DNA of 64,000 nucleotides. Origin: Candidatus Adlerbacteria bacterium. Its GTDB lineage: Bacteria > Patescibacteriota > Minisyncoccia > Phycocordibacterales > SBAW01. Within the stretch, counting starts at the first letter, position 1, and the number at the start of each line of letters is the position of its first letter. The stretch spans positions 23,102 to 87,101 of the forward strand of contig JBAXLB010000001.1 of the NCBI GenBank assembly GCA_037135035.1, in the 5' to 3' direction. The notes beneath the pieces were generated by a model, which was not told the DNA's origin, ran no database searches, and saw only the letters and a program-made list of their open reading frames with translations. Of this stretch, positions 1-61,400 are shown piece after piece. The translations under genes and the position numbers were made by a program.

Positions 1-500
1 TAGAGCAATCGCTCCAACTGCATAAAAAATTTGACCTCGCAGTTTCTTTGGAAGTAGGGGAGCATCTTTCCGATAAGGCGTCTCGTGTGTTTGTTAAAAA
101 CTTAACTGATGCTGCGCCAGCCATCTTATTTTCTGCGGCGATACCAGGACAAGGTGGTGTGCACCACATCAATGAACAGTGGCCCAGTTATTGGGAGACA
201 CGCTTCCGCGAACAAGGATATGTCCCAGTCGATTGTCTTCGCCGTCATGTGTTGGGTGATACACGAGTTTCATTTTTCTATGCGCAAAATGTGATGATCT
301 ACGTTAAAGAAACTGAGCTTCCAAAGTATCCCAATCTTGCTGAAGAAATTCGCACCGGCCACGGCGTTGCCCTCTCACTCGTGCATCCGCAACTCTACAC
401 GTATTACGAGAGTCGATGGACAAAAATTGCTCCACTCATTTGGAAAGTGCCATTACCCCTCATCAAGTTCGGCAAGCGCATATTGGCGAAAGGCAAATAG
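1..500 (+). CDS. Class I SAM-dependent methyltransferase, C-terminal fragment (5' end lies outside the window)
   Basis: The reading frame is open from the window edge. The motif 'FDLAVSLEVGEHL' resembles the Rossmann-fold methyltransferase motif. The gene is followed by glycan-modification genes. Confidence 0.5.
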   Translation, partial: EQSLQLHKKFDLAVSLEVGEHLSDKASRVFVKNLTDAAPAILFSAAIPGQGGVHHINEQWPSYWETRFREQGYVPVDCLRRHVLGDTRVSFFYAQNVMIYVKETELPKYPNLAEEIRTGHGVALSLVHPQLYTYYESRWTKIAPLIWKVPLPLIKFGKRILAKGK

Positions 501-503
501 AGA

Positions 504-1667
504 CTAGTGCGACAGTGCAGACACCATTGATCGCAGGTCTTCCGCGGTCATTTCAGGATTGTTCCCTATATAGAACCCCACGCTGTGGATATACTTTGCA
601 TTTGGTAGTGGGTGTACGGTAGACGAGTATTTTTTATAGAACGGCTGCTCGGTCATTGAACCGCCGACAATTGGGCGCAACTCGATACCTGCTTCTTCGC
701 ATCGCGCAACATATTTCCCCTGGATTTCTTTTGAAGTACACAGTACCGGGAACGCAAAATTGGAACATACGTCCATTGATACGTTGATCGGATGGAAGTC
801 GGGATTTTTATATACTTTGGAGAGGATGTTAAAATTTTCTACACGTTTTTTAATCATTTCATCCAAATAAGGTAGTTGTGTGAGCCCAATAAATCCTTGG
901 ATATCTGTTGGGCGTAGATTGTAGGCAAGATCATAAAATGTGTAACGGTCATAGAAGTTTGGAATGTCGTGTGTCTCTCGAAGACCTGTCTGCTCTGCAG
1001 GCAAGAGATTCCTGTTCCATCCGTGTGCACGAACCATTTTAAGCATGGCGTATAGTTCTGCATCATCGGTAAGTATCATCCCACCTTCAATGGTAGACAT
1101 ATGGTGTCCAACAAAGAAAGAAAATGTTGATGCGGTTCCAAAGTTTCCAAGACGCGTGCCTTTGTAAACCGAGCCGAGAGACTCACAATTATCTTCGTAC
1201 AGCAAAATACCTTTTTCCGCGCAAAAGTTTTTGATGGCATCAATGTCGCTGCAGAACCCTAGAAGGTTTGTAATGAAGAGCGCTTGAAATGCCTCAGCTG
1301 CATAGGCTTGCTCGAGCGTTGCCCGCGATATATTGAGAGAATCCAATTCAACATCGACAGGCATGGGAGTAAGACCCATTTGTATAATGGGCATCACGTT
1401 TGTTGCCCAGGTGACCGCAGAGAATGCTACCTTGTCTCCGGATTTCAAAGTTCCAAGGTTTATGAGTGCTTGGAATAACGCAAGGTTTGCAGAACTTCCA
1501 CTGTTTACAAATACAGCAAATTTCCTATCGTGCCATGCCGCAAACACTTCTTCAAATGCAACAGTCTGCGGGCCCATACTTAATTGTTTTGCTCCCATTA
1601 CAAAGTCGCATAGTGCCTTTTTTGTCTCCTCTTCCTTATAGAAGGTGTTTTTGATGAGGGAAATCAT
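504..1667 (-). CDS. PLP/PMP-dependent sugar 3-dehydrase of the DegT/DnrJ/EryC1 fold (ColD/RfbH-like: GDP-4-keto-6-deoxymannose or CDP-4-keto-6-deoxyglucose 3-dehydratase)
   Basis: 387-aa aspartate-aminotransferase-fold protein. The PLP-lysine motif is replaced by 'FFVGHHMSTIEGG' (His for Lys), the hallmark of ColD/E1 3-dehydrases. Its length matches ColD (~388 aa). Confidence 0.7.
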   Translation of the reverse strand: MISLIKNTFYKEEETKKALCDFVMGAKQLSMGPQTVAFEEVFAAWHDRKFAVFVNSGSSANLALFQALINLGTLKSGDKVAFSAVTWATNVMPIIQMGLTPMPVDVELDSLNISRATLEQAYAAEAFQALFITNLLGFCSDIDAIKNFCAEKGILLYEDNCESLGSVYKGTRLGNFGTASTFSFFVGHHMSTIEGGMILTDDAELYAMLKMVRAHGWNRNLLPAEQTGLRETHDIPNFYDRYTFYDLAYNLRPTDIQGFIGLTQLPYLDEMIKKRVENFNILSKVYKNPDFHPINVSMDVCSNFAFPVLCTSKEIQGKYVARCEEAGIELRPIVGGSMTEQPFYKKYSSTVHPLPNAKYIHSVGFYIGNNPEMTAEDLRSMVSALSH

Positions 1668-2650
1668 GCAATTGGTTTTATGTTAATAATGTCAAAGAGC
1701 CATGCGTCGAGGAGCTCCAGTTCTTGTGCTGGAATAAATTTTTGTTCAATAAGCTCTACATACACTGCGCGTAGATTTTCAGCAACTCCTCGCTCGGGAG
1801 TTGCAATTCGTTTCGCTGTATTGAATATATCTTCCGAGTGGAGGTAAATTAACATTTCTGCAGCGAAATCTTTTAGATAATTATGAGGATTTCGTTCTTG
1901 CATAACAGTCGAGGCAGTAAATCCAAGGGTCTTTCCTGCACACCACAAAATTGGTTGTGCAATAAGCCCGCGAACGATATCACTTTCTCGAGGAGAGATG
2001 TATGCGGGCAAATAGAGCAAGGGGAACGCTGTTTTTTCATATGTCGTACTCTGACAGTTAAAAGGTGACGAAGCCCCCGCAGACAATACAAGAGGGCCTC
2101 GTTTGTTGAATGTAATTGCGGCACCTTTTGTAAGGCGATATATAGCGTCGACGTCAGTGTCGTTATCGGCCAGATGTTGCCATATTCCGACAGACCCGCC
2201 GAGCATTTCTTCAGCAGGTTTTTTTTGCTCAAGTATCTTATCAAGCGGGTACCCGCGGGGCCAGATAAACTCATCGGTGAAATATTTATAGATATTTACG
2301 AATCCTTGTTCCGATATGTGTCCGTACGTTCCATCGAAGGAAGGAACCTCCCAAGCCCCAAGAGGAATGTTGTCGTCATCTACTTGGGAGATAATGTCGG
2401 CGCCTTGTTCTATCGCACGAAGGAACCCGACCATGGCGCGAGCCGGGAGGTTCCATGGGAGTTTTTGTATCAGGGCGTAGGGTAGTGTTGCTTGATCGTC
2501 AGCTGAGAAATATGTGACGCCATCCTGATGCCACCCCGGGGGAGATTTTTTATCACCAATAGTGATATTGTCCCATCCTGGCATCTGTGACAATTTAAGA
2601 ACTGCTTCAGTGGGAGGGTTGATTGTTGTTGTAACAATGACTTTTTTCAT
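1664..2650 (-). CDS. Putative glycosyltransferase, DUF288/STELLO (GT75-like) family
   Basis: N-terminus 'MKKVIVTTTINPPT' and an acidic 'QVDDDNIPL' motif. Embedded in a glycan locus. The family assignment is from memory of motifs only. Confidence 0.35.
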   Translation of the reverse strand: MKKVIVTTTINPPTEAVLKLSQMPGWDNITIGDKKSPPGWHQDGVTYFSADDQATLPYALIQKLPWNLPARAMVGFLRAIEQGADIISQVDDDNIPLGAWEVPSFDGTYGHISEQGFVNIYKYFTDEFIWPRGYPLDKILEQKKPAEEMLGGSVGIWQHLADNDTDVDAIYRLTKGAAITFNKRGPLVLSAGASSPFNCQSTTYEKTAFPLLYLPAYISPRESDIVRGLIAQPILWCAGKTLGFTASTVMQERNPHNYLKDFAAEMLIYLHSEDIFNTAKRIATPERGVAENLRAVYVELIEQKFIPAQELELLDAWLFDIINIKPIA

Positions 2651-2665
2651 ATAGCTGAATAGTAC

Positions 2666-3559
2666 CTAATACGGGAGAGTAATCCAGCGTTCAGGAATGA
2701 GGTCGCTTGTGTCAAAGGGCTTCGCAAGCCATTTTTTTGGTGCAATTGTGGTGCCGGTATGTGTTTCTTCAGAGAGCCACGCACCCCACCACCCAAATGT
2801 ACTGTTTGATAGTACATGGTGCTTGCAGAGGCTCATGAGCCCAAGGTCTTCATAGTTTTTGTCGGGGCCTTGCCCAATAAATGTCGTTGGTCGGCCTGTA
2901 ACAAGATTTTCGCGGGCCCACTCTATATCATCCGAAAAAACGAAATATTCTCCTTGCGGAAAACGTTCGTTCAATATCCGTATCGCTTCGTCGTAATACT
3001 CAGGAGGGCAGATACCGTGGTGCTTACTTACTGACGCATGTTTAACAAAGTCCCCGCGGCGTATATGGAATGAAATCGATTCAGGTGAATCGAGTATTTT
3101 TTTTGCTATGTCTTTTGAATAGTCGCTGAGAGGAGTTTTGAGCGCAAACTCTTTTCTGATTATGTCTTTGATGGGGAGAAAATATTTTTCAGATAACCAA
3201 TATCCATCGAGGTAGCAGGGAGGTGTAAGTTCCGTCATTTTCTGTGAAAATGTTGAAATATCTTCTGCAACGTAGCGGCGCGGATTGTAGAAGAAAGGGT
3301 TAAGGAGTTTGCCCCGTATCCCTCTTTGGCGTTTATGGCGCTTGAAGGGTGCTACATCACGCTCTGTTGCATATATTTCCTGGATGTTGAAGTGGCTCAA
3401 GCTGTATGTGTGAAATTCATACGTTTTAAAATCTAGGATGTCGAGTTTCAAATCCGCGTCAGTCTTAAGCGACAACATGCGCGCAAACGCATACTGGAAC
3501 ATTTGATTTCCCAAACCCCCGATGATCTTGGGTATAATTACTGGTTTTGTTTTTTCCAT
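2666..3559 (-). CDS. GT11 family alpha-1,2-fucosyl (or colitosyl) transferase
   Basis: N-terminal 'GGLGNQMFQYA' and 'HIRRGDF' motifs are diagnostic of GT11 (FutC/WbsJ/WbgN-like) enzymes. Confidence 0.8.
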   Translation of the reverse strand: MEKTKPVIIPKIIGGLGNQMFQYAFARMLSLKTDADLKLDILDFKTYEFHTYSLSHFNIQEIYATERDVAPFKRHKRQRGIRGKLLNPFFYNPRRYVAEDISTFSQKMTELTPPCYLDGYWLSEKYFLPIKDIIRKEFALKTPLSDYSKDIAKKILDSPESISFHIRRGDFVKHASVSKHHGICPPEYYDEAIRILNERFPQGEYFVFSDDIEWARENLVTGRPTTFIGQGPDKNYEDLGLMSLCKHHVLSNSTFGWWGAWLSEETHTGTTIAPKKWLAKPFDTSDLIPERWITLPY

Positions 3560-3583
3560 ATGGTACGTGAGCCGGTCAATGTG

Positions 3584-4519
3584 TTATTTCTTAGATTCAC
3601 GATACCATTCAATTGTGTTTTTGAGACCTTCTTCGAAAGTAGTTTTTGCTTGGAATCCAAGTTCGCGCGCTGCTTTTGTTGTATCAAATGTTCTGCGCGG
3701 TTGGCCGTCCGGCTGCCCCGGGTTCCATTTGATTTCCCCCTTAAATTCTTGCATTTCGACTATCTTTTCAATTACGGACTTGATTGTCATCTCTTGGCCT
3801 GACCCCAGGTTAATGGGTTCCGGCTTGTCGAATTTCTCCATAGTAAGAATAATTCCTTCGGCAGCATCATCTACGTAGAAAAATTCACGGGTCGGCTCTC
3901 CCGTGCCCCATGCTTCTATCCAAGGCTGGCCGGCTTTCTCCGCCGCATCAATTTTTAGAATAATCGCGGGAATAAGGTGCGAAGAAACAGGACTAAATTC
4001 ATCGTTTGGACCGTAGAGGTTTGCTATCTGTACTGAAACTGCATTAAAACCATATTCATGATTGTACGCTTCGCCTTGCACCTGCATCATCTTTTTTGCC
4101 AATCCATAGGGCGCGTTTGTTTCTTCGGGGAATCCGTTCCAAAAATCACTTTCCTTGAAAGGGACAGGTGTATATTTTGGATACGAACAGATGCTCCCGA
4201 CACCAAGAAATTTTTTAACGCCGGCCTTACGAGCAGCTTCCATGAGCTCGGTATTCATAATTATGTTGTCGTAAAACAGGAGTCCAGGATGTGCTCGGTT
4301 ATATCCGATGCCTCCTGCATTAGCCGCAAGATGGAACACGATATCCACGCCATTGACGGCCTCCTCACAATTTTTGCGGATACGCAGATCGCATTCTTTC
4401 GAACGTGTAATGCGGATGTTTCCTTCTGGAACTCCACGTGCAATCAGTGCTCGCACGACCGCAGTGCCAAGGAAACCAGCTCCGCCGGTCACGAGTATTT
4501 TTTTATTACTGAGTTCCAT
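3584..4519 (-). CDS. fcl: GDP-L-fucose synthase (GDP-4-keto-6-deoxy-D-mannose 3,5-epimerase/4-reductase), Fcl/ColC family
   Basis: Short-chain dehydrogenase (SDR) with 'ILVTGGAGFLG', 'SICSYPK' and 'NLYGPND' motifs matching Fcl/GER. The ColC homolog of the colitose pathway cannot be excluded. Confidence 0.8.
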   Translation of the reverse strand: MELSNKKILVTGGAGFLGTAVVRALIARGVPEGNIRITRSKECDLRIRKNCEEAVNGVDIVFHLAANAGGIGYNRAHPGLLFYDNIIMNTELMEAARKAGVKKFLGVGSICSYPKYTPVPFKESDFWNGFPEETNAPYGLAKKMMQVQGEAYNHEYGFNAVSVQIANLYGPNDEFSPVSSHLIPAIILKIDAAEKAGQPWIEAWGTGEPTREFFYVDDAAEGIILTMEKFDKPEPINLGSGQEMTIKSVIEKIVEMQEFKGEIKWNPGQPDGQPRRTFDTTKAARELGFQAKTTFEEGLKNTIEWYRESKK

Positions 4520-4539
4520 ATTGTTGTATGATATCGCAT

Positions 4540-5670
4540 TTACGTGCGACGAACTCGTCCTGAGACCTTTTTCTTCTTTGTCTTGGGTCTTTTTTTAATT
4601 TGGGCAGTAGGGTGGGGGATGTCGGAAATTGCTCCACCCTCACCGACATAATCGTGTTCTACCATTTCAGACACTAATTCGTGGAAAAGAGTTGCAGGTT
4701 TCCATCCAAGTACTTTTTTTGCCTTTGTGTAATCGCCAAGCAATACATCCACTTCGGCGGGACGGAAGTGAACGGGGTTGATAGCGATAATTTCTTTTCC
4801 AGTCTTTGTATCTATTCCAACTTCTTTGAGATCTTTCCCTTTCCAGGCCAGTTCAAACCCCAACCTAGCTGCTGCATGTTCTGCAAATTCTCTCACTGAA
4901 TACATTTTGCCGGTGGCAAGCACATAATCGTCCGCAACTTTGTGTTGAAGCATGCGCCACATCCCTTCAACGTAATCTCGTGCATGACCCCAGTCGCGCT
5001 TAGCATCCAAGTTGCCGAGGAAAAGTTTTTCATCTTTGCCTAATTTGATACGAGAAAGACCGCGTGTGATTTTCCGTGTTACAAAGTTTTCACCGCGACG
5101 AGGGGACTCATGGTTAAAAAGAATTCCATTTACTGCAAATACTCCGTAGCTTTCTCGATAATTTTTTGTAATCCAATACGCATAGACTTTTGCTACTCCA
5201 TAGGGTGAGCGAGGATAAAATGCAGAATTTTCTGTCAGGGGCAACTCGACCGCCTTGCCAAACATCTCCGAAGAAGATGCTTGGTAAAACTTTGTTTTAA
5301 TTCCAACTTCGCGGATAGCATCCAGTAGTCGTAATGTCCCAAGACCGGTGACTTGGCCTGTATATTCCGGTATATCAAAACTTGTACGCACATGGCTTTG
5401 TGCAGCAAGATTATATATTTCATCAGGGCGTACTTTTTCAAGGATGCGGTTGAGGTTACTCCCATCGGTAAGGTCGCCATAGTGGAGTGTCAAACGCGAA
5501 GGTCCTATGTGTTGGTATTTATGGAGACTCTCGAGGTGTTGAATCCGAGAAGCATTAAACGTACTGGAGCGTCTAATGATTCCATGCACTTCGTAGCCTT
5601 TTTCGAGGAGAAATTCGGCCAAATACGATCCGTCTTGTCCAGTGATGCCGGTAATGAGGGCCTTTTTCAT
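4540..5670 (-). CDS. gmd: GDP-mannose 4,6-dehydratase
   Basis: '[36 protein letters not shown]' is the canonical Gmd N-terminus. Unusual basic tail '[18 protein letters not shown]'. The ORF track starts 33 nt upstream, at 5703. Confidence 0.9.
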
Positions 5671-5731
5671 TGAGGTTCCATCATACTCCGATATATGAGA
5701 CACGAGGTCAAGGTATAGTGCTCTAAAGAAG

Positions 5732-6364
5732 CTAAAGTATTAATCTCTCGGCTACCTCAAGGCAAGCTTTAAAACGTAGATCTACTCCAAAAATAAATTT
5801 CTCCGGTGCCGGCATGTCTGCAAGGGTGAACCATTGTATATCACGAGCTTCTTGGCCTCCATGCAGAGTCTCACCAAGATGGACCTCTCCAATAAGCTCA
5901 ACAGGGAAATAAGAAGAAATCGCGTGTTTAGTAGATTCTGGAAGGAATACCTTCGAATGTATCCAATTCTCTTCCTTTTCTCGAGGAGCAAATTGCCCTA
6001 GAATTACCGGTCTTTCAGAATCAACAAGTAATTTAATTTCACAGCCAAGATCGGTGCGAGCATGACGACGCAATGCATCTTCTATACTTTCAGGCGGATG
6101 GCTTTCCGGTCGACGATTAATGCGTCCGCCAACAGAACATAATTTCCCCGCTAATTTACCGGTATTGCGCACGATTGCCATCGCTTCAAGTTCTCCAGAT
6201 CTGTTACGGCGAACAGGAACCATATCAACGCACATGATAGGCACTATTCTTTCAATAAGAGTATAGAGGGCTTTTGAAATTATAACTCCCTCCGAGGTAA
6301 GTAAATCAGTTCGATCCAGTAGTTCTTGCGCCAACTCCTCAGTAGATTTTTCTTTCAAATACAT
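5732..6364 (-). CDS. Nudix-like hydrolase, possibly GDP-mannose mannosyl hydrolase-like
   Basis: Degenerate Nudix-box-like segment '[29 protein letters not shown]'. Its position next to gmd-fcl mirrors wcaH/gmm in colanic-acid loci. Confidence 0.3.
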
Positions 6365-6373
6365 AATTTTATT

Positions 6374-7630
6374 TTATAAGGTTTTATAAATCATATATAA
6401 CGACAGCGAGGCGCCCGCTTCGGAAAGTATTGTTGCCCACACTGCGCCCCATAAGCCAAAAAAGGGAATTAGTGCGCAAAACAAAATAAATTCAACAGCT
6501 TGGCTTGAAAGTACTGCAATATAGCGTTTCTTAACTTCTCCATGTGCGACGATATATGAGTCTATTACGCCGCGTGGTTGGAAAAGTATCATAAGCGCAA
6601 GAGCTTGGCTTACCAGGATGGAAGGAAGATATTTAGGGAACAAGAATGTAAACAAGAAAGGAACACATGCTATATATATTCCAGTGAGTAGAATTGCACT
6701 TATTGTAAGTTGGCGCAGTCTGAGTGAAAGGCTTTGTTTCGCATCATTTTTTTCTTTTGCGGCAAGTTTTGGAAAGAGAATGGAAAGAACATTGTCGAGT
6801 ATGTTACGCGTTTCAAGGACTGGTGCCAAGGCAAGTGCGTATATAGCCAACTCCGTACCTCCTGAAAAATGAAACAGAAGTAATTGATCTATTTGACCAC
6901 TTACCAGAAGGAAAAAACCTAATGCGCTTAAGTGTTTGCCGAATGTGATAGTCTCTGAAACGTCTTGATTTGACCCTGTGATTTTAAATCTACGTATTGT
7001 CCATAAATATTGGACCCAGCTCCCTAGCGCATTGGAAAAAAAATAGGCAGCTAGTATCCACACGACGTCTTGCGTGAAGAGGAGCGTGGCTACAATAACG
7101 ATTATAGGAAATAGTAATCGAGGGATGCTATAAAAAAAAGAATGTTTGAAGTCTCCCTTAGCAACAATGATTGATTTTGCTAAGCCAAATCCGTTTGAAA
7201 TGATGTTGAATACTGCAATAAAAAGAAAACCGTATCCAAGCGTAGAATTTCCTTGTAAAAAGTAATATCCACCAATACCGGTACTTACAAGGCTTGCTGG
7301 CACGCTCCACAGCATCATAGTACGCACAAGTGCGGGTACTACGTGTTGTTTACCTTGGGCTACGGCGCGCATAAGTGCGCCCCCCATACTATTGAGACTA
7401 AATGCACCAACAACACTCGCTGCGGCCACCACATATTTATAGGTACCAAATAGTTCAGGCGAAAACAGGTTGGCGAATGCGGTTGTGAGTATTAGACCGC
7501 TTGCTATAGCTATTACACGTCCCAGATTGAACCAGACATTGCTCATAAAAAAGTACACCATATCTGTTTTGGTGTATTTTTCGCTCCGGCGAAGGAGGTC
7601 GTATAGGCCCTGTTTTGCTTTTCTAATCAT
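6374..7630 (-). CDS. Polysaccharide/oligosaccharide flippase (Wzx-like, MOP/PST superfamily)
   Basis: ~12 predicted TM helices across 418 aa. The architecture is typical of O-unit flippases. Located in a glycan locus. Confidence 0.7.
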   Translation of the reverse strand: MIRKAKQGLYDLLRRSEKYTKTDMVYFFMSNVWFNLGRVIAIASGLILTTAFANLFSPELFGTYKYVVAAASVVGAFSLNSMGGALMRAVAQGKQHVVPALVRTMMLWSVPASLVSTGIGGYYFLQGNSTLGYGFLFIAVFNIISNGFGLAKSIIVAKGDFKHSFFYSIPRLLFPIIVIVATLLFTQDVVWILAAYFFSNALGSWVQYLWTIRRFKITGSNQDVSETITFGKHLSALGFFLLVSGQIDQLLLFHFSGGTELAIYALALAPVLETRNILDNVLSILFPKLAAKEKNDAKQSLSLRLRQLTISAILLTGIYIACVPFLFTFLFPKYLPSILVSQALALMILFQPRGVIDSYIVAHGEVKKRYIAVLSSQAVEFILFCALIPFFGLWGAVWATILSEAGASLSLYMIYKTL

Positions 7631-7694
7631 GACGGTACCAGAAGTATAACTGTTCTTTGGTGTAAAAAGGTACTTCTGCTACAATGCCCTTTAT

Positions 7695-9989
7695 ATGTCG
7701 TATACCAAATTCTTGAAGTGGGCGCTGCTTGGCGGCCTGGCCCTGGTGTTCTTTGTTCCTTTTATTATCGCTGACGGAGGAGGTGCCTACCAAAACGGGT
7801 TCAATATGTATATTCCGTTTCCGGGGAGCTTTTTCCCATTTATCACGGGGAAGAACTTCATGTTCCGTATGTTGGTCGAATTGTTGGCAGGCCTCTATAT
7901 AGTGCTTGCACTGCGTGAACCAAAGTACCGACCGCGCACGTCGACTCTGTTGTGGGTATTTGGCGCCTTTGTTCTGTGGATGGGTTTTGCAACCATGTTT
8001 AGCGTTGACCCTACCAAGAGCTTTTGGAGTAACTTCGAACGTATGGAAGGGTACCTGACAGTGCTACACCTGTTTGTATATTTCCTCATTGTGGGTGCGG
8101 TCGCCTCGGCAGAAGAATGGTGGGACCGTTTGTTCCAAGTGTCGATAGTGTCTTCGGCACTTATGGGAGTCTATGCGCTGCTACAGCTTGCGGGCGCGCT
8201 TCCTATAAGTAGCCAGAGCGGCCCGCGTGTTGACGGTACATTTGGTAACGCAACCTATTTGGCAGTGTTTATGCTCTTCGGTGTTTTTATCACACTCTTT
8301 ATGCTTGTGAGGCAGCGGAAGTCTATGTGGGCACAGATATTCTACGGCGTTGCACTTGTGCTGCAGGTTACGACGCTTTACTACACTCAAACGCGCGGTG
8401 CGCTCCTTGGCTTGCTTGGTGGGCTGATACTCGCCGGTCTATATATTGTATGGAAGGGAAGGGATGCGCAGTGGCAGCCGCTCCGCAAAGTTGCTCTTGT
8501 TGGCATTGGGGTTATAGCAGTTGTAGTGGTTGGTTTTTTTGCACTCCGCACAACATCGTTTGTAAAAAACAGCGGGACGCTTTCGCGCTTTTCTTCTATC
8601 TCGCTTAGTGACCAGACAACAACCGCGCGCTTCCAGGTGTGGAACATGGCTCTCCAAGGAGTTAAGGAAAAACCTCTTGTGGGTTGGGGCCAGGAAAACT
8701 TTAACTTCGTGTTCAATAAATATTATTCTCCAGAAATGTACAGTCAGGAGCAGTGGTTCGACCGCGCGCACAACCAATTTTTGGACTGGCTTATTGCGGG
8801 CGGACTGCCAGCATTTGCGCTCTACATAGCTTTCTTCGTACTCTCGGTGCTGGTTATATTCCGTTCTCGTTTGAGTGTGCCCGAACAAGCTGTGCTGATA
8901 GGGTTGCTTGCTGCATACGCGTTTAACAACCTTTTTGTGTTCGACGACCTTGTGAGTTCGGTCTACTTTGTAACGTTCCTCGCATTCTTCCATTCGCTTT
9001 CTAAAGGTGCACTGCCGGGTTCGGTTGCCCTTTCGCGCCCACTTAGTGACAAGGGAATTGCTGTTGCAGCGCCCTTTGTTATGGGTGGCGCGCTTCTCCT
9101 TATATGGGTAGTAAACATCCCCGGCCTTGCCCGCGCTGAAGGGTTGCTTGTCGCACTGACGCCGCAGGTGGGAGTCTCAGACGGTCAGGGCGGTATGCGT
9201 GCTGCACAAAAAGACCCAAAAGCACGTCTGCAAGAATTCCAAACAGCGCTTGATGCTGGTGTATGGCCGGGTACACCGCTTGGCCGTCAAGAAGCAACTG
9301 AACAAATGCTCCAGTATGCTTCGGGTATCGCGGCAGCCGCGTCAGTTGACCCTGCAGTAAAACAAGACACCTTTACGGCGACCCAAAACGCGACGGTAGC
9401 GATGTTGGCGGCGCGCCCGCATGACGCCCGCCTCGAATTGTTTTATGGGGCATTCCTCGACACGTTTGGAAAATATCCTGAAGCGCTAGAGTCGTTGACG
9501 AGTGCACTTGTCGACTCTCCACTCAAACAACAAATAATGTTCGAAAAAGGGGTTGTGTACTTAAACGCAAACGATACCCAAAATGCCCAGAGCGTGCTTA
9601 AGACTGCATTTGACGAAGCTCCAGGTTACCGTGACGCTCGCATTTTGTATGCAGCGGCGCTTACCTACAGCGGTAACCAGAAAAGCGCTGACGCACTTTT
9701 AGTTGAAGCCTTCGGTACGGTGTTAGTAGATGACTCGCGTTTGTTGCAGGTGTACACCAACAAAAAACTGTACGACCGCGTGGTTGGTATATGGAAAGCG
9801 CGGATCGAACAAAATCCACAAAATACACAAAGCCATTTAGGTTTGGCAGCAGCGTACTTTACCTCCGGTAATAAAACAGCTGCAATTGCAGAGCTTAACC
9901 GTGCTGCACAGCTCGACCCGGCGCTTGCTGCCCAGGTGCAGTCGGTTATCACACAAATCCAAAACGGAACACTCGCAGTGCCGAAGTAG
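7695..9989 (+). CDS. O-antigen ligase/polymerase-like (Wzy_C) membrane protein with C-terminal TPR-like domain
   Basis: Polytopic N-terminal half with the Wzy_C-type motif 'YTQTRGALLGLLGG'. The C-terminal ~300 aa are Ala/Leu-rich helical repeats (TPR-like). Confidence 0.7.
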   Translation: MSYTKFLKWALLGGLALVFFVPFIIADGGGAYQNGFNMYIPFPGSFFPFITGKNFMFRMLVELLAGLYIVLALREPKYRPRTSTLLWVFGAFVLWMGFATMFSVDPTKSFWSNFERMEGYLTVLHLFVYFLIVGAVASAEEWWDRLFQVSIVSSALMGVYALLQLAGALPISSQSGPRVDGTFGNATYLAVFMLFGVFITLFMLVRQRKSMWAQIFYGVALVLQVTTLYYTQTRGALLGLLGGLILAGLYIVWKGRDAQWQPLRKVALVGIGVIAVVVVGFFALRTTSFVKNSGTLSRFSSISLSDQTTTARFQVWNMALQGVKEKPLVGWGQENFNFVFNKYYSPEMYSQEQWFDRAHNQFLDWLIAGGLPAFALYIAFFVLSVLVIFRSRLSVPEQAVLIGLLAAYAFNNLFVFDDLVSSVYFVTFLAFFHSLSKGALPGSVALSRPLSDKGIAVAAPFVMGGALLLIWVVNIPGLARAEGLLVALTPQVGVSDGQGGMRAAQKDPKARLQEFQTALDAGVWPGTPLGRQEATEQMLQYASGIAAAASVDPAVKQDTFTATQNATVAMLAARPHDARLELFYGAFLDTFGKYPEALESLTSALVDSPLKQQIMFEKGVVYLNANDTQNAQSVLKTAFDEAPGYRDARILYAAALTYSGNQKSADALLVEAFGTVLVDDSRLLQVYTNKKLYDRVVGIWKARIEQNPQNTQSHLGLAAAYFTSGNKTAAIAELNRAAQLDPALAAQVQSVITQIQNGTLAVPK

Positions 9990-17593: not shown

Positions 17594-17617
17594 CTCGGGG
17601 GTAACCCCGAGTTTTTT
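17594..17617 (+). terminator. Rho-independent terminator after gatB (ctcgggg-gtaa-ccccgag + TTTTTT)
   Basis: Perfect 7-bp GC stem, tetraloop and T6 run. Confidence 0.7.
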
Positions 17618-17639
17618 GATGCTGTATACTAGTCTGTAT

Positions 17640-18371
17640 ATGGATGAGCTAGAAATCTCGGGTAAGCGATACATCTCGTCTAAACGTATTGCTAAAGAAA
17701 ACAAGTACCACTCCGACTATATCGGCCAGCTTATACGTGCAGGTAAAGTTGCTGGTACCAAGGTAGGCAGGGCGTGGTACGTGGAGGAAGCGTCGTTTGC
17801 AGAGTATCTGAACAAAGAGCACAAGATCTATTCTGCTCCCACCCCTTCTGAAAAACCCTCGGTCGCTGCTGTGACTGTAGAAGAGACTCCACTTCCCGTA
17901 GACCTTGAAGCAAAAGAAGCTGAAGAAAAAAATATAATCCAATTGCATGTTATGCCCGAGGAAAAAGTGGAAGAAGTTCTTGAGCAAGAAATATCGACAC
18001 CTGTTGCGGTGTACACGCCTCCAATAAAAAAAACAGGCCTTACCTATATTGCAGACTCGAGCCCTTTGTTTCCTGCAATTTCCAGACGCACAAAACCTCT
18101 TCCTGTAGCTGTAGTGGAAGAGCCTGAAGAAATATACAGAGAAGTTTTGGTAGAAAGAGTGCCTACCAAACGAGCAAAAGAATCAAATAAAAAAATAGTA
18201 GTGTCAGCCTTTTCGTTTCTTGTGTTGAGTGGTATTTTATTTGCTGTTGCTTTGTACGGCTCACTGAACGTTACTACAACGCTTATTGTTGAGAAAGGGA
18301 AATCAGCAAGTGTAGTTCTTTCAGGAAATAACGCACTCTGCTTCATTTTTAATACTTGTCAAAAGATATAG
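17640..18371 (+). CDS. Membrane-anchored protein with N-terminal excisionase/HTH_17-like domain, paralogous to the N-terminus of the giant protein
   Basis: 'ISSKRIAKENKYHSDYIGQLIRAGKVAGTKVGRAWYVEE' aligns with residues 13-53 of the 18802 protein. A C-terminal TM helix is 'VVSAFSFLVLSGILFAVALYG'. The ORF track starts at 17616 (TTG). Confidence 0.6.
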   Translation: MDELEISGKRYISSKRIAKENKYHSDYIGQLIRAGKVAGTKVGRAWYVEEASFAEYLNKEHKIYSAPTPSEKPSVAAVTVEETPLPVDLEAKEAEEKNIIQLHVMPEEKVEEVLEQEISTPVAVYTPPIKKTGLTYIADSSPLFPAISRRTKPLPVAVVEEPEEIYREVLVERVPTKRAKESNKKIVVSAFSFLVLSGILFAVALYGSLNVTTTLIVEKGKSASVVLSGNNALCFIFNTCQKI

Positions 18372-18801: not shown

Positions 18802-21800
18802 TTGAACACATTACTTTCACAACATGGTGAGCAAATGCTTTCAGCCCGTAAGGTAGCTGAACGTTTGGGTTGCGCCCAGGACTATGTTTCCAAGCTCTGC
18901 CGTGAAGGCAAGCTTGCGGGGAAACAAATTGACGGAGCGTGGTTTATAGAACAGGAGTCAATTTCTACATTTGAAAAAATGCGAGAGGTGGCAAAAATAG
19001 CTCGTGCAGAGGCTCTCGCAGACCAACGCCGAAAGGAAAATAAAGAATATCAAATACAGCGCGCGGGAGAATTTAAAAAACAATTTTTCGCACGGGCTGT
19101 GGGCGCGGTACGTACGGGTGTGTTTTTTGCTGCAGGGTCGGCGCTGCTTCTAGGTTCGGTTGTATTTGCGGGAGAACACGGGAAGGTAAACACTGTACAG
19201 GAAACAGCCGCACATACGCAGCAGGTAGGTACATCTGTTGCACAACATAGTGCGCTCTTTTTTGGAACGCCAACAACATCTGTTGCACTGTCTGCGGCAG
19301 TTGGGGAAACCGCTGCCGCGGCGGTCGGTAGTTTTTTCTCAAGAGTAATTTCATATTTTTTTGCTGCACCAGCAGCGCACTATGTTGTCGCACCGGAAAA
19401 CCCAACTGCATATGTTCCGCAGCAAGTTACTGAAACACAAAGTTCTGCACCGGGCCCTGGCGCGCCAGTTGCCCCGACTAAAACTGTTGTAGTCCAGCAA
19501 AATACGTACCCTGTTATCCAGCGCACGCTTGAGCGTGTCGTGTCGGTTGGTGGCATCAGTGATGCAGAACTTACGGATAGGTTGAACCAACTTAACAACA
19601 AACTACAGTCGCAAATTTCCACCATTGCAAACCCAGGGTACGGAAGCCCGCGTGGGAATTTTGATTTTTCTCAAGCAGTAAATAATCTTTCAAACGTAAC
19701 CGTACATGGAGTTAGCGGTTTAACTGATGCGGACATCCCTGACACTATTTCGCTCTCTGGGGTAACTATTGGAGGTGCCACGATTTCAAGTTTTACGGGT
19801 ACTGGGCTTTCTGTTGTAAACGGAGTGCTCACTGCGTCTGGCGGCTCGGGTTTTTCTACAACGTCTGCCGACTACTACGTCAACGCGTCTTCAACGATAC
19901 CAAAAACGTATAGCGACAATGTTTTTACTGGAGGAAATATTTTTGGTAACTCAACAACTACAAATGCCACAACAACCAATTTATACATAGCAGGTTCAGT
20001 GCGCGGCGGAGGGCTCACTACGTCGTGTATTGGCTCGGGAGACAAAATTATATGGGACGCGACAACGGGCCAATTTGGTTGCGGTACGGACGCAGGAGGT
20101 TCGGGAAGCGGAATATCGGGACTAAAAGCCCAGTATGGTACGGCCCAAACTGGTGCAACACAAACACTTGCAACGTCTACCTCTGGTACCGACTTTACTA
20201 TCACCTCGGCAGGCGACATCCATACATTTAACTTGCCATCCGCGTCGGCATCGAACCGCGGCCTTTTGACTGCGGCTGACTTTACAACGTTTAACAGTAA
20301 ACAGTCGGCACTTTCATTTGCGTACCCGCTGCTTAATTCTGCGGGAACTATTTCGCTGGCGTTTAGTACGACAACTGCAAACACATGGAGCGCGCTCCAA
20401 ACCTTTACGTCGGGCTTCCTTGCAGCTGCATCATCGACTGTAAACAATACTCTTGCTGTTACGGGTGCAACGACGCTTGGCTCGACATTGAACGTACTAG
20501 GGCAGACAACACTCGCTACGTCGCTCAGTGGCCTGCTTAAAGCAACGGCCGGAGTTGTCTCTACTGCGACTGCAGGTGTCGACTACTTAACCTCGGCAAA
20601 TGTATTTAGCTATTTGTTCCCAGGTAATGCAACGTCAACACAGCTGACATTTAACGGCGGCTTCCTCTCAACAGCATCATCAACAATCAACAGCACCTTC
20701 CATATTGGCGGTCTTTCAGACGGCGCCCTCGCAGTCTTCGGAGGCCTTGTTTCGTCAGGTGCCACAACAACTGCAGGTACGGGCCTTACCTACAGTGGCA
20801 ATGCATTTAACGTAAACAGTATTCAAAGCATTAGTAAACTTTCTAACTTGGCGTCTGCTGGTTTTGTCAAAACATCAAGCGACGGAACGCTTTCGGTAGA
20901 CACAGCGACATATCTCACGTCTGCACTTACATCGATTGGTCCGGCAGGACAAACAACAACAGGCGCTGCCGTAACCCTTGCGTCGTCAACTGCAGGAACT
21001 GACTTTACTATCACAGGTTCGGGTTCAACACTTACGTTCAACCTTCCAACTGCGTCTGCATCTAACAGAGGACTTCTCTCGAGTACTGACTGGAATACAT
21101 TTAACAACAAGGGAAATGTTGGGTATCCGTTCGCTCTCTCGGGTAATGCAACGTCAACTCTCACACAATTTAATGCAGGTCTTACTGCATTCGCTTCCTC
21201 AACTATTGGAAGCGGCACACAAAGTGGAGGTCTTACTATCTTCGGTGGTGCAACAACAACTGCGAACGCGTACTTCGGTGCGGCTATTACAGGGGCAACA
21301 ACGTTTACATTGCCGACACTTGGAACAGCGGCTGGAGCATTTCTTGCAGTAGATGCAAATGGACAGATTATTGCCACGACAACACCGAGTGGTGGTGGAG
21401 GTGGTTCGGGTACAGTAACCAACATTGCTACAATATATCCGTTGCTTGGAGGCCCTATTACAAACACCGGCACATTGTCGCTTGCGTTTGGTACTACCAC
21501 CGCAAATATTTGGGGTTCGCTGCAAACATTTTCTGCAGGGTTCCTTGCTGCAGCCTCTTCGACAGTTAACGGTACGTTTGTAGTGACCGGGCAAACAACG
21601 CTTGCGTCGTCGCTCAATGGGCCGCTGCAAGCAAACCAAGGTCTTGTGTCGGCAACAAGCAGTGTCGGTACACTGTACGGCGGTACTGGAGTTACGTCGT
21701 ATACAACGGGAGATATTTTGTATGCAGACGCTACCAACCATCTTGCAAAATTAGGGATTGGCAGCACAGGCAGTGTGTTGAAAGTTGCTGGAGGTCTGCC

Positions 21801-60164: not shown

Positions 60165-61400
60165 TTAAACCAACCAACCGCGCTCCTGTGCCCACACAGT
60201 GTCCCACAGTGCGCGGGCTAGCCACAAAGGTGCGATGAAGCCAAACAGCGCAAAGTAGGAGATAAAAGCTTTTAGCGGAAGGCGGGTTTGTGCGATGCGT
60301 TGTCCAAGTACAACGGCCATAAGCGTCATACCAAGTGTTGCAATGACAAGGAAGCTAAGCATGCTGGTGTTAATGTAAAACCACTGTAAGGAATTTGTGG
60401 AGACGTGGGGCGGCACGTGCGTCGCCAACATATCCAACACATGTGTGGAGACGAATTCTGTAATACGCCATACGGTGTAGGATGCAGTATAGAGGCCACC
60501 TAAAAAAGCAACGAGCCCAAAGGGGAGCACGAGTACGCCGAAGTGTCCATATTTCCGGTTGAAGTACATATATGAATAGTCGCGGGAATTCTCTAAAAAA
60601 CCACGCGACCAACGGGTGCGCTGGCGAACAAGTGCCCCGACCGTTGGGGGGACATTGGTATACACAAGTGCTGTGTGTACGTTGGTGATTTTGAGTCCAT
60701 TGGCATGCATGCGGAACGCCATCTCCATATCTTCAGTATGATGGGCTTTGCGGAAGAGGCCTATTTTTTCAAACACACTGCGGCGGTAAATGGAAAATGG
60801 ACCCGGCAAAACAGAAATCGCACTCAGGTTGTCAAACATTTTTTTGTAAAATATGCCGAAGGTATACTCGACCGACTGCATAAGTTCGAGCAGGTTGCGC
60901 GGGTGGTTAACCTTCATCGCAGGTGCAACAGCCATCGCTTCGGGGTCCCGTTCAAATTCTTTGGCGACTTCAAGCAATGCGTCTTTTGCTACAAACGAGT
61001 CGGCGTCGAGGCATCCAACAAGGTCGCTTTCTGAGCGGTTAATGGCGTAGTTGAGCGCGGCATATTTACTACCCTCGTTCTTTTTTTGATAGATCTTAAT
61101 TTGTGGGTTGTGTGCAAAAATTTGCGCTGCCTCATACGTGTTGTCGGTCGAACCGTCGTCGACTATAACAATAGACAGTTTGTCCTTTGGGTAGTCCATT
61201 GCAAGGAGCGACTCCACAGTACCTGCAAGTGTCTTTGCTTTGTTCCAGCAGGGGATAATGATGGTCGTACTTGGGTAGTAATTCGGCAAAGTAGCAGTCT
61301 TCTGTTGGGGGCGTTTTTCCAAGAATGAAATAAGCAAAAAAACCTCGAAATAGAGGCCTACAAACAGGAATATATATATGCCAAATGACCCAATGTCCAT
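60165..61400 (-). CDS. Processive family-2 glycosyltransferase (cellulose/chitin/hyaluronan-synthase-like, membrane-embedded)
   Basis: GT2 'IIIPCWNKAKT...VIVDDGSTDNT' (DxD) and 'VRQRTRWSRG' (QxxRW) motifs. N- and C-terminal TM helices. The ORF track extends to 61625. Confidence 0.75.
   Translation of the reverse strand: MDIGSFGIYIFLFVGLYFEVFLLISFLEKRPQQKTATLPNYYPSTTIIIPCWNKAKTLAGTVESLLAMDYPKDKLSIVIVDDGSTDNTYEAAQIFAHNPQIKIYQKKNEGSKYAALNYAINRSESDLVGCLDADSFVAKDALLEVAKEFERDPEAMAVAPAMKVNHPRNLLELMQSVEYTFGIFYKKMFDNLSAISVLPGPFSIYRRSVFEKIGLFRKAHHTEDMEMAFRMHANGLKITNVHTALVYTNVPPTVGALVRQRTRWSRGFLENSRDYSYMYFNRKYGHFGVLVLPFGLVAFLGGLYTASYTVWRITEFVSTHVLDMLATHVPPHVSTNSLQWFYINTSMLSFLVIATLGMTLMAVVLGQRIAQTRLPLKAFISYFALFGFIAPLWLARALWDTVWAQERGWLV

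Follow-up and report, generated by a model that had tools for sequence, protein, structure and literature searches.

A putative GDP-3,6-dideoxyhexose operon in a surface-glycan locus of Candidatus Adlerbacteria

Which deoxysugar is supplied by an operon that combines genes for GDP-mannose 4,6-dehydratase (Gmd) and a reductase of the Fcl/ColC superfamily with a gene for a DegT-fold enzyme carrying histidine in place of the PLP lysine? The operon lies within a 64-kb stretch of Candidatus Adlerbacteria DNA (64,000 nucleotides of a 327-kb MAG contig; hereafter the window), for which a sequence-only reading had considered a GDP-linked route the more parsimonious. On balance, we lean towards the view that Gmd, a ColD-type dehydratase and the reductase together would produce a GDP-3,6-dideoxy-L-hexose of the colitose type, which is then transferred by a GT11 enzyme.

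Organisation of the locus

Seven genes on the minus strand, separated by intergenic gaps of at most 28 nt or overlapping by 4 nt, form an operon at 504–7630, and all open reading frames were found as listed in Table 1. From 7630 down to 504, the order is Wzx-like flippase, DUF4916/Nudix-like protein, Gmd, Fcl/ColC-superfamily reductase, GT11, STELLO/DUF288 protein and DegT-fold enzyme, the stop of the STELLO/DUF288 gene overlapping the start of the last gene by 4 nt. The sequence-only reading had set gmd and the reductase gene beside the DegT gene; all three do belong to one operon, but the GT11 and STELLO-like genes intervene. The operon is best understood as that part of a larger Wzx/Wzy-type surface-glycan locus which presumably serves nucleotide-sugar synthesis and transfer; the locus extends past the left window edge. 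In this locus, a lipid-linked unit would be flipped by Wzx and polymerised or ligated by the Wzy_C/TPR protein. Patescibacteria are generally considered to have no outer membrane with LPS.

Table 1. Features at the left end of the window
Position	Strand	Feature	Basis and remarks
3–500	+	Methyltransferase, class I SAM, C-terminal part	Truncated by left window edge; converges on operon
504–1667	-	ColD-type PMP-dependent sugar 3-dehydratase, DegT fold	DegT_DnrJ_EryC1 227.8 bits; contains VGHHMSTIEGG
1664–2650	-	GT75-fold, MtdL-like protein	Pfam STELLO/DUF288, STELLO 41.2 bits
2666–3559	-	GT11 glycosyltransferase, alpha-1,2-fucosyl/colitosyl-transferase family	122.6 bits; HIRRGD motif
3584–4519	-	Fcl/ColC-superfamily NADPH-dependent epimerase/4-reductase, Fcl-like SDR, clade W	Profile, tree, synteny
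4540–5703	-	GDP-mannose 4,6-dehydratase, Gmd	TIGR01472 534.6
5732–6364	-	DUF4916/Nudix-fold protein, degenerate Nudix box	DUF4916 34.5 bits; NUDIX E=0.005
6374–7630	-	MOP-family, Wzx-like flippase, first gene of operon	Polysacc_synt_3 26.5 bits (weak; cut-off 23)
7695–9989	+	Wzy_C membrane protein (O-antigen ligase/polymerase-like) with C-terminal TPR	Wzy_C 84.6 bits and TPR families; diverges from operon

The methyltransferase, Wzx and Wzy/ligase-like genes of the sequence-only reading were all recovered. The methyltransferase fragment in the window has no Pfam match; its full-length 250-aa counterpart in loci L001 and L116 matches Methyltransf_23/11/25, and the gene is kept in L085 (62% identity). 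Flippase orthologues of L116, L117 and L119 match Polysacc_synt and Polysacc_synt_3, and the divergent Wzy_C/TPR arrangement is repeated in L085 and L119. The DUF4916/Nudix protein, whose sole PDB match is 4ktb (E=0.012), adjoins gmd on the upstream side in L116 as well and is absent from the remaining loci compared.

Gmd was also present in 33 of the 80 genome loci carrying a relative of the dehydratase, and 14 of these 33 show the exact order gmd, colD-like gene, Fcl-like reductase gene. The module of gmd, reductase, GT11, GT75-like and ColD-like genes was found again in L116 and L119; it recurs in L117 with other genes interspersed, and L085 keeps the last four genes with no adjacent gmd.

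The ColD-like dehydratase

The first histidine of the GHHMSTIEGG motif aligned with the catalytic His188 of ColD from E. coli O55, a position marked by the mutant structures 3b8x (H188N) and 2r0t (H188K). The His motif was unchanged in 92 of 92 His-type sequences, whereas the outgroup carries lysine. In our tree, His-type and Lys-type enzymes were split, with 99% bootstrap for the His-type clade, and the family of the window dehydratase joined characterised ColD at 93% bootstrap, leaving out E1. Both the alignment and this placement among ColD, RfbH/DdhC and aminotransferases bear out the earlier assignment to the ColD/RfbH-type 3-dehydratases. The best solved relative was ColD (2gms; E=1.6e-62, 214.8 bits), as compared with E=1.5e-44 and 155.7 bits for E1 and E≥1e-28 and about 100 bits or less for aminotransferases.

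The CDP-3,6-dideoxyhexose pathway (RfbF, RfbG, E1/RfbH/DdhC and E3) likewise employs a His-type DegT-fold 3-dehydratase, and RfbH is the top NCBIfam match of the window enzyme, with 224.8 bits, a score below the RfbH cut-off of 423. In contrast to that pathway, the [2Fe-2S] cysteine motif of E1 was not found in the window enzyme, which has no cysteine at E1's GRDCYCAPGCDNTC in the alignment; there is no E3, and the window is devoid of CDP-glucose genes. Identity to ColD is 33%, and known ColD-type enzymes share 62–67% with one another (PMC10440746). Judged by these sequence comparisons, the protein is a His-type, Fe-S-free, ColD-like 3-dehydratase from a sister subfamily of ColD without characterised members.

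As in ColD-type chemistry (PMC8987622), the enzyme would form a PMP-sugar Schiff base from which the active-site histidine expels the C3 hydroxyl. Since there is no Fe-S cluster, GDP-4-keto-3,6-dideoxy-D-mannose would be released by hydrolysis and PMP regenerated from L-glutamate, as with ColD. The window dehydratase falls in a subclade of mixed genomic contexts. At about seven loci, a family member is paired with a CDP-glucose-4,6-dehydratase-like SDR replacing Gmd, and a bona fide glucose-1-phosphate cytidylyltransferase lies near a family member in two loci. To judge from these neighbourhoods, the family is probably not confined to GDP-sugars.

Gmd, the reductase and the predicted pathway

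Gmd exceeded the equivalog cut-off of 415 (Table 1) and is 59% identical to Yersinia Gmd; its start is likely the ATG at 5670, and the L001 gene call has 376 aa. Homologue searches of the 64-kb window found neither a second 4,6-dehydratase nor a glucose-1-phosphate cytidylyltransferase, in line with the reported absence of CDP-glucose genes. With a bona fide Gmd as its sole 4,6-dehydratase, the locus is indeed read most parsimoniously in terms of the GDP route. Gmd would convert GDP-mannose to GDP-4-keto-6-deoxy-D-mannose; the window does not encode a GDP-mannose source, and neither ManB nor ManC was found in it.

The reductase scored 249.6 on the Fcl equivalog, under its cut-off of 500, matched E. 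coli GFS at E=1.8e-52 and is 31–35% identical to ColC and Fcl. The sequence-only reading had suggested that its placement might decide between these two. It does not cluster firmly with Fcl, but E. coli Fcl and ColC share one clade (100% bootstrap) and the window enzyme stands outside, in a separate clade W (96% bootstrap); by sequence, phylogeny gives no separation of Fcl from ColC. The equivalents of Cys109, Tyr136, Lys140 and His179 were unchanged across the reductase alignment, and the residue pair for epimerisation (Cys/His) is retained together with the triad for reduction (Ser/Thr-Tyr-Lys). Epimerisation at C5 and reduction at C4 by this enzyme would yield a GDP-3,6-dideoxy-L-hexose, in the simplest case GDP-L-colitose, the L-sugar being expected because the Cys/His pair is conserved.

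Synteny of clade W was followed in a metagenome scan with the reductase as the only query, i.e. sampled independently of ColD. A His-type 3-dehydratase gene was present in all 11 clade W loci with sufficient flank, immediately upstream of the reductase gene in 10 of them, and gmd was again directly upstream in all 8 of those loci reaching that far. The coupled dehydratases come from three different lineages, and the 11 loci amount to about four independent lineages. Among remoter Fcl-like matches of the same scan, five of six have gmd without a dehydratase. This consistent operon coupling suggests specialisation of clade W, and we propose a ColC-like role for the window reductase, whose gene itself adjoins gmd, not the dehydratase gene. 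A counter-example is L079: its W-type reductase follows gmd, while the gene that overlaps the ColD-like one encodes another reductase, of the Fcl clade, so that an Fcl function is possible for W-type enzymes. Moreover, Fcl-lineage reductases 55–58% identical to bona fide Fcl follow ColD-like genes in many loci, suggesting easy interchange of Fcl and ColC roles.

A closest known system is the GDP-L-colitose pathway of E. coli O55/O111 and Yersinia pseudotuberculosis O:6/O:7/O:10 (Gmd, ColD/WbdK, ColC/WbdJ and the GT11 colitosyltransferase WbgN). Common to both are the three enzyme types and GT11 in a Wzx/Wzy locus, a dehydratase with His for Lys and without the Fe-S motif that has ColD as best solved match, and a reductase with Fcl-type catalytic residues. 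In contrast, the window dehydratase belongs to a sister subfamily (33% identity) and has Gly before the histidine where ColD has Ser187, the reductase lies outside the ColC-containing clade, the gene order is gmd-reductase-GT11-GT75-colD instead of gmd-colC-colD, manB and manC are missing from the locus, and the host is a Patescibacterium. The GDP-3,6-dideoxy-heptose pathways of Campylobacter jejuni HS:5/HS:11 also lead from a GDP-linked 4,6-dehydratase through a ColD-type PLP/PMP C3-dehydratase to epimerisation and C4 reduction, but they use a heptose substrate, a cupin epimerase separate from the reductase, and dehydratases 62–67% identical to ColD (PMC10440746).

Sugar transfer, rival products and distribution

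The GT11 enzyme, which would transfer the sugar to its acceptor, is 32% identical to the GT11 of the E. coli O55 colitose locus, which we take to be WbgN, with HIRRGD conserved. GT11 genes were found in the E. coli O55 and Yersinia colitose loci and in L085, L116, L117 and L119. The family assignment stands, but it does not tell colitose from fucose, as either donor, GDP-Col or GDP-Fuc, can serve WbgN as well as FUT2 (PMC11987014).

The DUF288-like protein, earlier taken for a plain transferase, has instead the fold and motifs of the GT75 NDP-pyranose mutases, a point new beyond the earlier reading. This group comprises MtdL and Hyg20, which convert GDP-L-Galp/GDP-L-Fucp to the furanose, and plant UAM/RGP (PMC9937993). 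MtdL was the sole significant PDB sequence match (E about 1e-9), and in Foldseek the AF2 model (pLDDT 95.5) matched the full-length MtdL fold with a TM of 0.80–0.84, compared with 0.68 for rice UAM2 and ≤0.40 for other GT-A folds. DDD, the catalytic Arg in PRG[FY]P and the equivalents of MtdL Asp195, Gln229, Arg257, Asp260, Arg289 and His292 are kept, and DDD, PRG, D166/D168, Q200, R221, D224 and RNxH are unchanged in the family, which is associated with GDP-L-fucose-type pathways. In contrast, the family has Pro/Tyr at the position of the essential MtdL Asp87 and Gln at that of the Mn ligand His287, identity is 21–23%, the protein has 328 aa against 376 aa in MtdL, and bacterial members of its Pfam class, STELLO/DUF288, are without known activity. 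The modelled fold makes it a candidate GDP-L-sugar pyranose/furanose mutase or glycosyltransferase that may turn part of the GDP-L-sugar into furanose, or add another sugar.

Other products have to be weighed against a colitose-type donor. GDP-L-fucose and GDP-L-colitose might both be made, with one reductase taking the products of Gmd and ColD and GT11 transferring whichever is available, so that the glycan would be mixed or regulated. We regard this as unlikely, if still a serious contender: the reductase is the sole one of the locus, encoded immediately after gmd and with the full Fcl catalytic set, L079 pairs its W-type reductase with gmd and another with the ColD-like gene, ordinary Fcl-lineage enzymes follow ColD-like genes in many loci, and the GT11 enzymes WbgN and FUT2 can use either donor (PMC11987014). 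The specialisation suggested by the coupling of clade W to 3-dehydratases and the single GT11 in the operon argue for one product. [quoted passage not shown] Such a scheme would leave the ColD product without any other reductase in the locus, and the 64-kb window encodes no further 4,6-dehydratase and no nucleotidyltransferase. The window also departs from the GDP-L-fucose pathway (Gmd, Fcl) with GT11 alpha-1,2-fucosyltransferases in the low Fcl score and separate clade of its reductase, in the 3-dehydratase of its operon, and in the coupling of clade W to gmd plus dehydratase in independent lineages. It shares with that pathway the GT11 with HxRRGD and a gmd-reductase adjacency resembling classical gmd-fcl pairs; dehydratase relatives adjoin CDP-glucose pathway genes, the GT75-like protein accompanies true gmd-fcl pairs in Hymenobacter, and L085 has the remaining module without adjacent gmd, all of which would suit fucose alone.

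The final donor could also differ from L-colitose pyranose, as a GDP-3,6-dideoxyhexose with another C4/C5 configuration or as a furanose formed by the GT75/MtdL-like protein, an alternative that we consider distinctly unlikely. C4 and C5 stereochemistry is not readable from sequence, the reductase is non-orthologous to ColC, and in C. jejuni the same dehydratase chemistry leads to four stereoisomers (L-ribo, L-xylo, D-arabino and D-lyxo) set by downstream enzymes (PMC10440746). A 3,6-dideoxy furanose, paratofuranose, occurs in Yersinia with the predicted mutase WbyH (PMC5399914), and the GT75-like protein, whose gene is translationally coupled to that of the dehydratase, folds like MtdL and has kept most of the catalytic residues of MtdL. 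The conserved Cys/His epimerase pair, the loss of Asp87 and His287, the pyranose donors that are the only ones known for GT11 enzymes, and the fact that no dedicated furanosyltransferase was identified speak against such a donor.

The sequence-only reading had called the locus unusual for a reduced-genome bacterium. This view did not hold: dehydratase relatives at E≤1e-20 number 7287, with the best loci mostly from Patescibacteria. The enzyme lineages of the window locus are without characterised members, and such loci are common in Patescibacteria. Even a tiny-genome endosymbiont keeps ColD and ColC (PMC8204192).

Architecture of the glycan locus

The glycan genes form seven minus-strand ORFs arranged head to tail from 7630 to 504, with gaps of 9 to 28 nt and a single 4-nt overlap at 1664-1667. 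Beyond the Wzy_C+TPR gene, MurB and SecA mark the right-hand boundary of the locus. The left edge of the window cuts through a methyltransferase gene that is transcribed towards the operon and continues outside.

Genes of the operon in order of transcription, followed by the neighbouring Wzy_C+TPR gene
Feature	Position	Strand	Basis and remarks
MOP/Wzx-like flippase	6374-7630	-	Polysacc_synt_3, weak; first in transcription order
DUF4916/Nudix-like protein	5732-6364	-	Pfam
Gmd	4540-5703	-	TIGR01472, 534.6 bits (equivalog cut-off 415)
Fcl-like SDR (reductase)	3584-4519	-	Below the NCBIfam Fcl equivalog cut-off
GT11	2666-3559	-	Pfam PF01531, 122.6 bits (cut-off 23.9)
STELLO/DUF288 protein (GT75-like)	1664-2650	-	Pfam
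DegT-fold enzyme (dehydratase)	504-1667	-	Pfam; last in transcription order
Wzy_C+TPR gene	7695-9989	+	Divergent from the operon

The locus extends further to the left, as shown by its Logan copy L001 and by a 78%-identical relative, L116. The extension encodes an MBOAT protein, a phosphopantetheinyl transferase, a carrier protein, a MaoC dehydratase, a ketoreductase, AsnB, an SDR and three more glycosyltransferases. Just left of position 1, at 9629-12470 of L001 and 11980-16219 of L116, MBOAT, holo-ACP synthase, a 348-aa protein, carrier protein, MaoC dehydratase and ketoreductase genes lie together beyond the methyltransferase gene, in a stretch suggestive of a module that decorates the glycan with acyl or hydroxyacyl groups. 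These acyl-type genes are followed by AsnB, the SDR, one GT1 and two GT2 genes.

G+C content is 0.43-0.46 over the first 8 kb against 0.46-0.52 elsewhere in the window, one 2-kb stretch near 18-20 kb excepted. Promoter and terminator scans gave no usable signal at the operon boundaries, promoter-like sites being fewer than in shuffled controls. The sequence-only reading had remarked on the absence of CDP-glucose genes, and this is borne out: a search of the 64-kb window for ManB, ManC, the cytidylyltransferase RfbF and a second 4,6-dehydratase found none, leaving Gmd as its sole 4,6-dehydratase.

The DUF4916/Nudix-fold protein reads RHARTD where the Nudix box has the catalytic REUxEE. Its gene lies directly upstream of gmd in L116 too and is missing from all other related loci. 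We take this position to recall that of gmm/wcaH beside gmd-fcl in E. coli; no similarity to the gmm/wcaH GDP-mannose mannosyl hydrolase was detectable, and among solved Nudix hydrolases only 4ktb was matched (E=0.012). At 2315-5097 of L116, on the opposite strand beside the DUF4916-gmd module, lie genes for an APH-family kinase and a small NTP_transferase that are not in the window; the pair resembles either LicA/LicC-type phosphocholine activation or a sugar-1-kinase/nucleotidyltransferase salvage pair.

An uncharacterised sister lineage of ColD

The last enzyme of the operon has the DegT/aspartate-aminotransferase fold (PF01041, 227.8 bits, residues 13-385). Among solved structures its best phmmer match is E. 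coli O55 ColD (2gms, E=1.6e-62, 214.8 bits), followed by E1 (3bcx, E=1.5e-44, 155.7 bits) and an NDP-4-keto-6-deoxyglucose 3-dehydratase (9wvy, E=2.3e-38, 135.3 bits); Lys-type aminotransferases rank only thereafter (E>=1e-28, 103 bits or less). The proposed replacement of the PLP lysine by histidine is upheld by alignment, in which the first histidine of VGHHMSTIEGG pairs with His188 of ColD, a position fixed by the deposited PDB mutants H188N, H188K and S187N/H188K. This histidine is invariant across the dehydratase family, and the Lys-type outgroup has lysine in its place. The [2Fe-2S] cysteine motif is missing, since the dehydratase reads HGWNRNLLPAEQTG where E1 reads GRDCYCAPGCDNTC, and ColD likewise lacks the motif; the RfbH equivalog scores 224.8 bits, below its cut-off of 423. 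Histidine in place of lysine combined with the lack of an Fe-S motif defines the ColD-type mechanism, in which the histidine serves as the base, hydrolysis disposes of the aminomannoseen intermediate and PMP is regenerated from glutamate, with no need of an E3 reductase (PMC8987622).

The same affiliation emerges from a neighbour-joining tree with bootstrap, for which Lys-type DegT proteins of the same loci served as root. The His-type sequences, 92 in number, all fall into a single clade (99%). Within it the family of the window dehydratase is monophyletic (76 sequences, 100%) and, joined by two outliers, branches as the sister group of ColD from E. coli and Yersinia (93%), with the E1-type and Fe-S-motif groups outside. 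Thus, the grouping with ColD that the sequence-only reading had favoured over RfbH and the aminotransferases is supported by both tree and phmmer ranking. The dehydratase shares 33-34% identity with ColD of E. coli and Yersinia, below orthologue level, whereas the characterised ColD-type enzymes from E. coli, Yersinia and C. jejuni share 62-67% with one another (PMC10440746). The dehydratase therefore represents an uncharacterised sister subfamily and not a ColD orthologue.

This family, of which the motif is an invariant feature, comprises 7287 proteins at E<=1e-20. A scan of one genome per species returned at least 586 relatives, and the best 80 loci, from which genomic contexts were taken, are mostly from Patescibacteria, with others from Chitinophaga, Mucilaginibacter, Streptomyces, Elusimicrobia and DPANN archaea. 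Contrary to the earlier view, a locus of this kind is nothing out of the ordinary in a reduced genome, given how abundant the dehydratase family is in Patescibacteria. ColD and ColC are also retained by an endosymbiont with a tiny genome (PMC8204192). A literature search for a link between colitose and Patescibacteria found none beyond one irrelevant co-mention.

Gmd (at least 50% identity) is encoded in 33 of the 80 loci, 14 of which have the exact order gmd, colD-like gene, Fcl-like reductase gene. In about 7 of the 80 the dehydratase is paired instead with an SDR, here called SDR7, which among NCBIfam models matches CDP-glucose 4,6-dehydratase best, with a score under the cut-off. Two loci place SDR7 immediately after a genuine glucose-1-phosphate cytidylyltransferase (TIGR02623, 328.7 bits against a cut-off of 300). 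From these neighbours, the dehydratase family is probably not restricted to GDP-sugars, and the window enzyme itself falls in a subclade of mixed contexts. An Fe-S-free ColD-like enzyme with a CDP-glucose-4,6-dehydratase-like SDR and no Gmd occurs in loci L011, L021, L046, L016, L019, L007 and L014 (around position 10001), and the same pairing in L045 (12560-14332) and L079 (12232-14057). Some CDP-type loci add a genuine glucose-1-phosphate cytidylyltransferase together with a tyvelose-epimerase-like SDR, an arrangement that suggests an E3-independent route to CDP-3,6-dideoxyhexoses in Patescibacteria.

The annotation of these proteins is divided. JGI already names relatives of the dehydratase "3-dehydrase", and NCBI calls them aminotransferases; its name for the window protein and for relatives P0001, P0004, P0046 and P0074 is DegT/DnrJ/EryC1/StrS family aminotransferase. 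As the Schiff-base lysine is missing, His-type DegT proteins are almost certainly dehydratases and should not be named aminotransferases, so that the NCBI name misdescribes thousands of entries.

The clade-W reductase and its dehydratase partners

The reductase scores 249.6 bits against the Fcl equivalog NF047922 (cut-off 500) and shares 35% identity with E. coli Fcl and 31-33% with E. coli and Yersinia ColC, the ColC references being taken from the authentic colitose loci L082 and L083. Like ColC, it is an Fcl-like extended SDR with Ser/Thr-Tyr-Lys and a Cys/His epimerisation pair: the equivalents of Fcl Ser107, Cys109, Tyr136, Lys140 and His179 are all kept, and the 22 sequences of its clade share those of Cys, Tyr, Lys and His without exception. 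A neighbour-joining tree of 74 sequences unites E. coli Fcl with the two ColC proteins and most of the ColD-adjacent reductases in one clade (100% bootstrap), so phylogeny alone cannot tell Fcl from ColC, which is a further lesson for annotation. The window enzyme belongs to a separate clade, termed W (96%), and is not a ColC orthologue. Such a placement, to which the sequence-only reading had left the choice between Fcl and ColC, does not make the enzyme firmly an Fcl and joins it to neither, as it lies outside the clade that the two share.

Since the tree is uninformative as to Fcl or ColC, we turned to synteny in an independently seeded sample. A metagenome scan with the reductase alone as seed returned 15 close relatives (52-78% identical), 11 of them with enough flanking sequence. 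A His-type DegT 3-dehydratase gene is present in 11 of these 11 loci, which come from related metagenomes and amount to about four independent lineages. In ten it lies directly upstream of the reductase gene, and all eight of those ten that extend far enough have gmd directly upstream of the dehydratase gene. In seven of the ten the dehydratase is of an E1-like lineage with a cysteine-rich motif, in the other three of one that shares 40% identity with E. coli ColD. The remaining locus, L085, is syntenic with the window. The coupling of the reductase to gmd and a 3-dehydratase recurs in the window and in the related loci L116 and L119, and five of six more distant Fcl-like matches in the same scan have gmd without a dehydratase. 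Partnership of clade W with three dehydratase lineages argues for a ColC-like role. There is a counter-example in L079 (Saganbacteria), where a W-type reductase gene follows gmd and a second reductase gene, of the Fcl clade, overlaps the ColD-like gene beside CDP-glucose genes. In the window, too, the reductase gene adjoins gmd and not the dehydratase gene.

Operons of gmd, a 411-414-aa His-type DegT and a clade-W reductase are seen at 1220-4464 of L087 and in L090, L091, L092, L093, L094 and L095. Their DegT protein reads AHNIQVGEMG and, where E1 has its [2Fe-2S] motif, GRxCDCxxCxRxxxGC; this E1-like 3-dehydratase is presumably reductase-dependent. Directly after Gmd, such an enzyme would constitute a GDP-linked Fe-S route, of which we know no characterised example. 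In L085 (8689-14910), the closest metagenomic relative of the locus (identities: reductase 76%, ColD-like protein 65%, GT75-like protein 58%, GT11 46%), gmd and the DUF4916 gene are missing between wzx and the reductase gene, and there is no Gmd within 10 kb; the module is thus separable from gmd.

A GT75-fold partner and the proposed sugar

The STELLO/DUF288 protein had been taken for a DUF288-like glycosyltransferase; its predicted fold is that of the GT75 mutases. In the PDB, only MtdL entries match its sequence significantly (E about 1e-9). An AlphaFold2 model from 42 homologues (pLDDT 95.5) superposes in Foldseek on MtdL over the whole length (TM 0.80-0.84, E 1e-21), then on the rice GT75 mutase UAM2 (TM 0.68), with all other GT-A enzymes at 0.40 or less; the model displays the GT75 combination of a Rossmann-like N-terminal domain with unique core and helical domains. 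MtdL and Hyg20 are Mn2+-dependent mutases that interconvert the pyranose and furanose forms of GDP-L-galactose and GDP-L-fucose (PMC9937993). D91-D92-D93 and W130-P131-R132-G133 are invariant in the 42 homologues and align with MtdL D109-D111 and R159. Altogether, the invariant MtdL equivalents are the DDD, the catalytic Arg159 in PRG[FY]P, Asp195, Gln229, Arg257, Asp260, Arg289 and His292. The essential Asp87 of MtdL corresponds to Pro69 (Tyr in the family consensus), in a loop where the alignment is less certain, and the Mn2+ ligand His287 to an invariant Gln251. From its sequence, the protein may be a mutase or a transferase.

GT11, GT75-like and ColD-like genes are kept as a trio in the related loci L085, L116 and L117, with one extra gene between the first two in L119, and 10 of the 34 best GT75-like matches agree with ColD-like matches in the length of the longest contig. 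Among the 80 species-representative ColD-like loci, none has a GT75-like gene. The GT75-like gene stands beside a true Fcl gene (54-58% identical to E. coli Fcl) in Hymenobacter and in one further locus, both of them lacking a dehydratase gene, and in Hymenobacter gmd is also present. Occurring with gmd and Fcl-type reductases in Patescibacteria as well as in Hymenobacter, the GT75-like gene thus travels with GDP-L-fucose-type pathways in general.

The GT11 assignment is backed by the motif HIRRGDFV, which aligns with HIRRGDYV of the GT11 enzyme from the E. coli O55 colitose locus, 32% identical overall. The latter is presumably WbgN. The Yersinia colitose locus has a GT11 gene as well, as do related loci of Patescibacteria. 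WbgN and human FUT2 each use GDP-L-Col, GDP-L-Fuc and GDP-L-Gal (PMC11987014), so the family assignment is silent on the sugar transferred.

In the proposed pathway Gmd, the ColD-type dehydratase and the clade-W epimerase/reductase would make, by way of GDP-sugars, a colitose-type 3,6-dideoxy-L-hexose, which GT11 would then move into a Wzx/Wzy-type glycan. Such a GDP-3,6-dideoxy-L-hexose is the best-supported product on sequence grounds, and we consider it somewhat more likely than not. That the single reductase makes both GDP-fucose and GDP-colitose, as the sequence-only reading had envisaged, is possible if on the unlikely side: the catalytic residues of Fcl are kept and the gene adjoins gmd, and set against this is the invariable 3-dehydratase of the informative clade-W loci. 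It is quite improbable that the locus yields fucose only while the dehydratase works on another substrate, a reading to which the CDP-type contexts of the family would be congenial and to which the window, with Gmd as its one 4,6-dehydratase, offers little.

A different stereoisomer or ring form, a reading that overlaps with the colitose-type one, appears unlikely. Stereochemistry is not derivable from sequence, and in C. jejuni the same dehydratase type gives rise to four 3,6-dideoxy configurations (PMC10440746). As for the ring, the conserved, translationally coupled pair of GT75/MtdL-fold and ColD-type proteins raises the idea, rather improbable in our judgement, that the final donor is a furanose. 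The GT75-like protein would then act as an Mn2+-dependent mutase converting GDP-L-colitopyranose (3-deoxy-L-fucose) to GDP-L-colitofuranose. Were this so, patescibacterial surface glycans would carry a 3,6-dideoxy-L-hexofuranose, of which we know no description, and for the bacterial DUF288/STELLO family, over 6000 proteins strong, there would be a function that can be tested, that of a GDP-L-sugar pyranose/furanose mutase.

The colitose-type pathway itself is textbook. New are the origin of both committed enzymes from lineages without a characterised member, a reductase clade that by sequence is orthologous to neither Fcl nor ColC, and the coupling of a GT75/MtdL-fold protein to the dehydratase. 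Enzymology thereby gains a ColD-type subfamily and a reductase clade that are both new and stand apart from textbook ColD and ColC. Sugars of the 3,6-dideoxyhexose class are rare and strongly antigenic and are known above all from O-antigens of enteric pathogens, and Patescibacteria live attached to host cells with a surface chemistry that is almost unknown. If the operon works as proposed, ultra-small bacteria would widely display colitose-type sugars on their surfaces, the dehydratase family numbering thousands.

Elsewhere in the window, a giant ORF of 2733 aa (18802-27003) has no Pfam match beyond a weak N-terminal HTH_17, which is likewise found in a 251-aa ORF ahead of it (17616-18371). 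It is followed by about 20 kb of consecutive ORFs (27017-47818), many with hydrophobic starts and essentially without Pfam matches apart from a TPR, an AMP-binding fragment and an Ig-like surface domain; the stretch may encode a set of envelope or secreted proteins specific to the lineage. At 60165-61625 on the minus strand, unrelated to the glycan locus, a 486-aa GT2 protein with weak chitin-synthase and cellulose-synthase matches may be a processive polysaccharide synthase.
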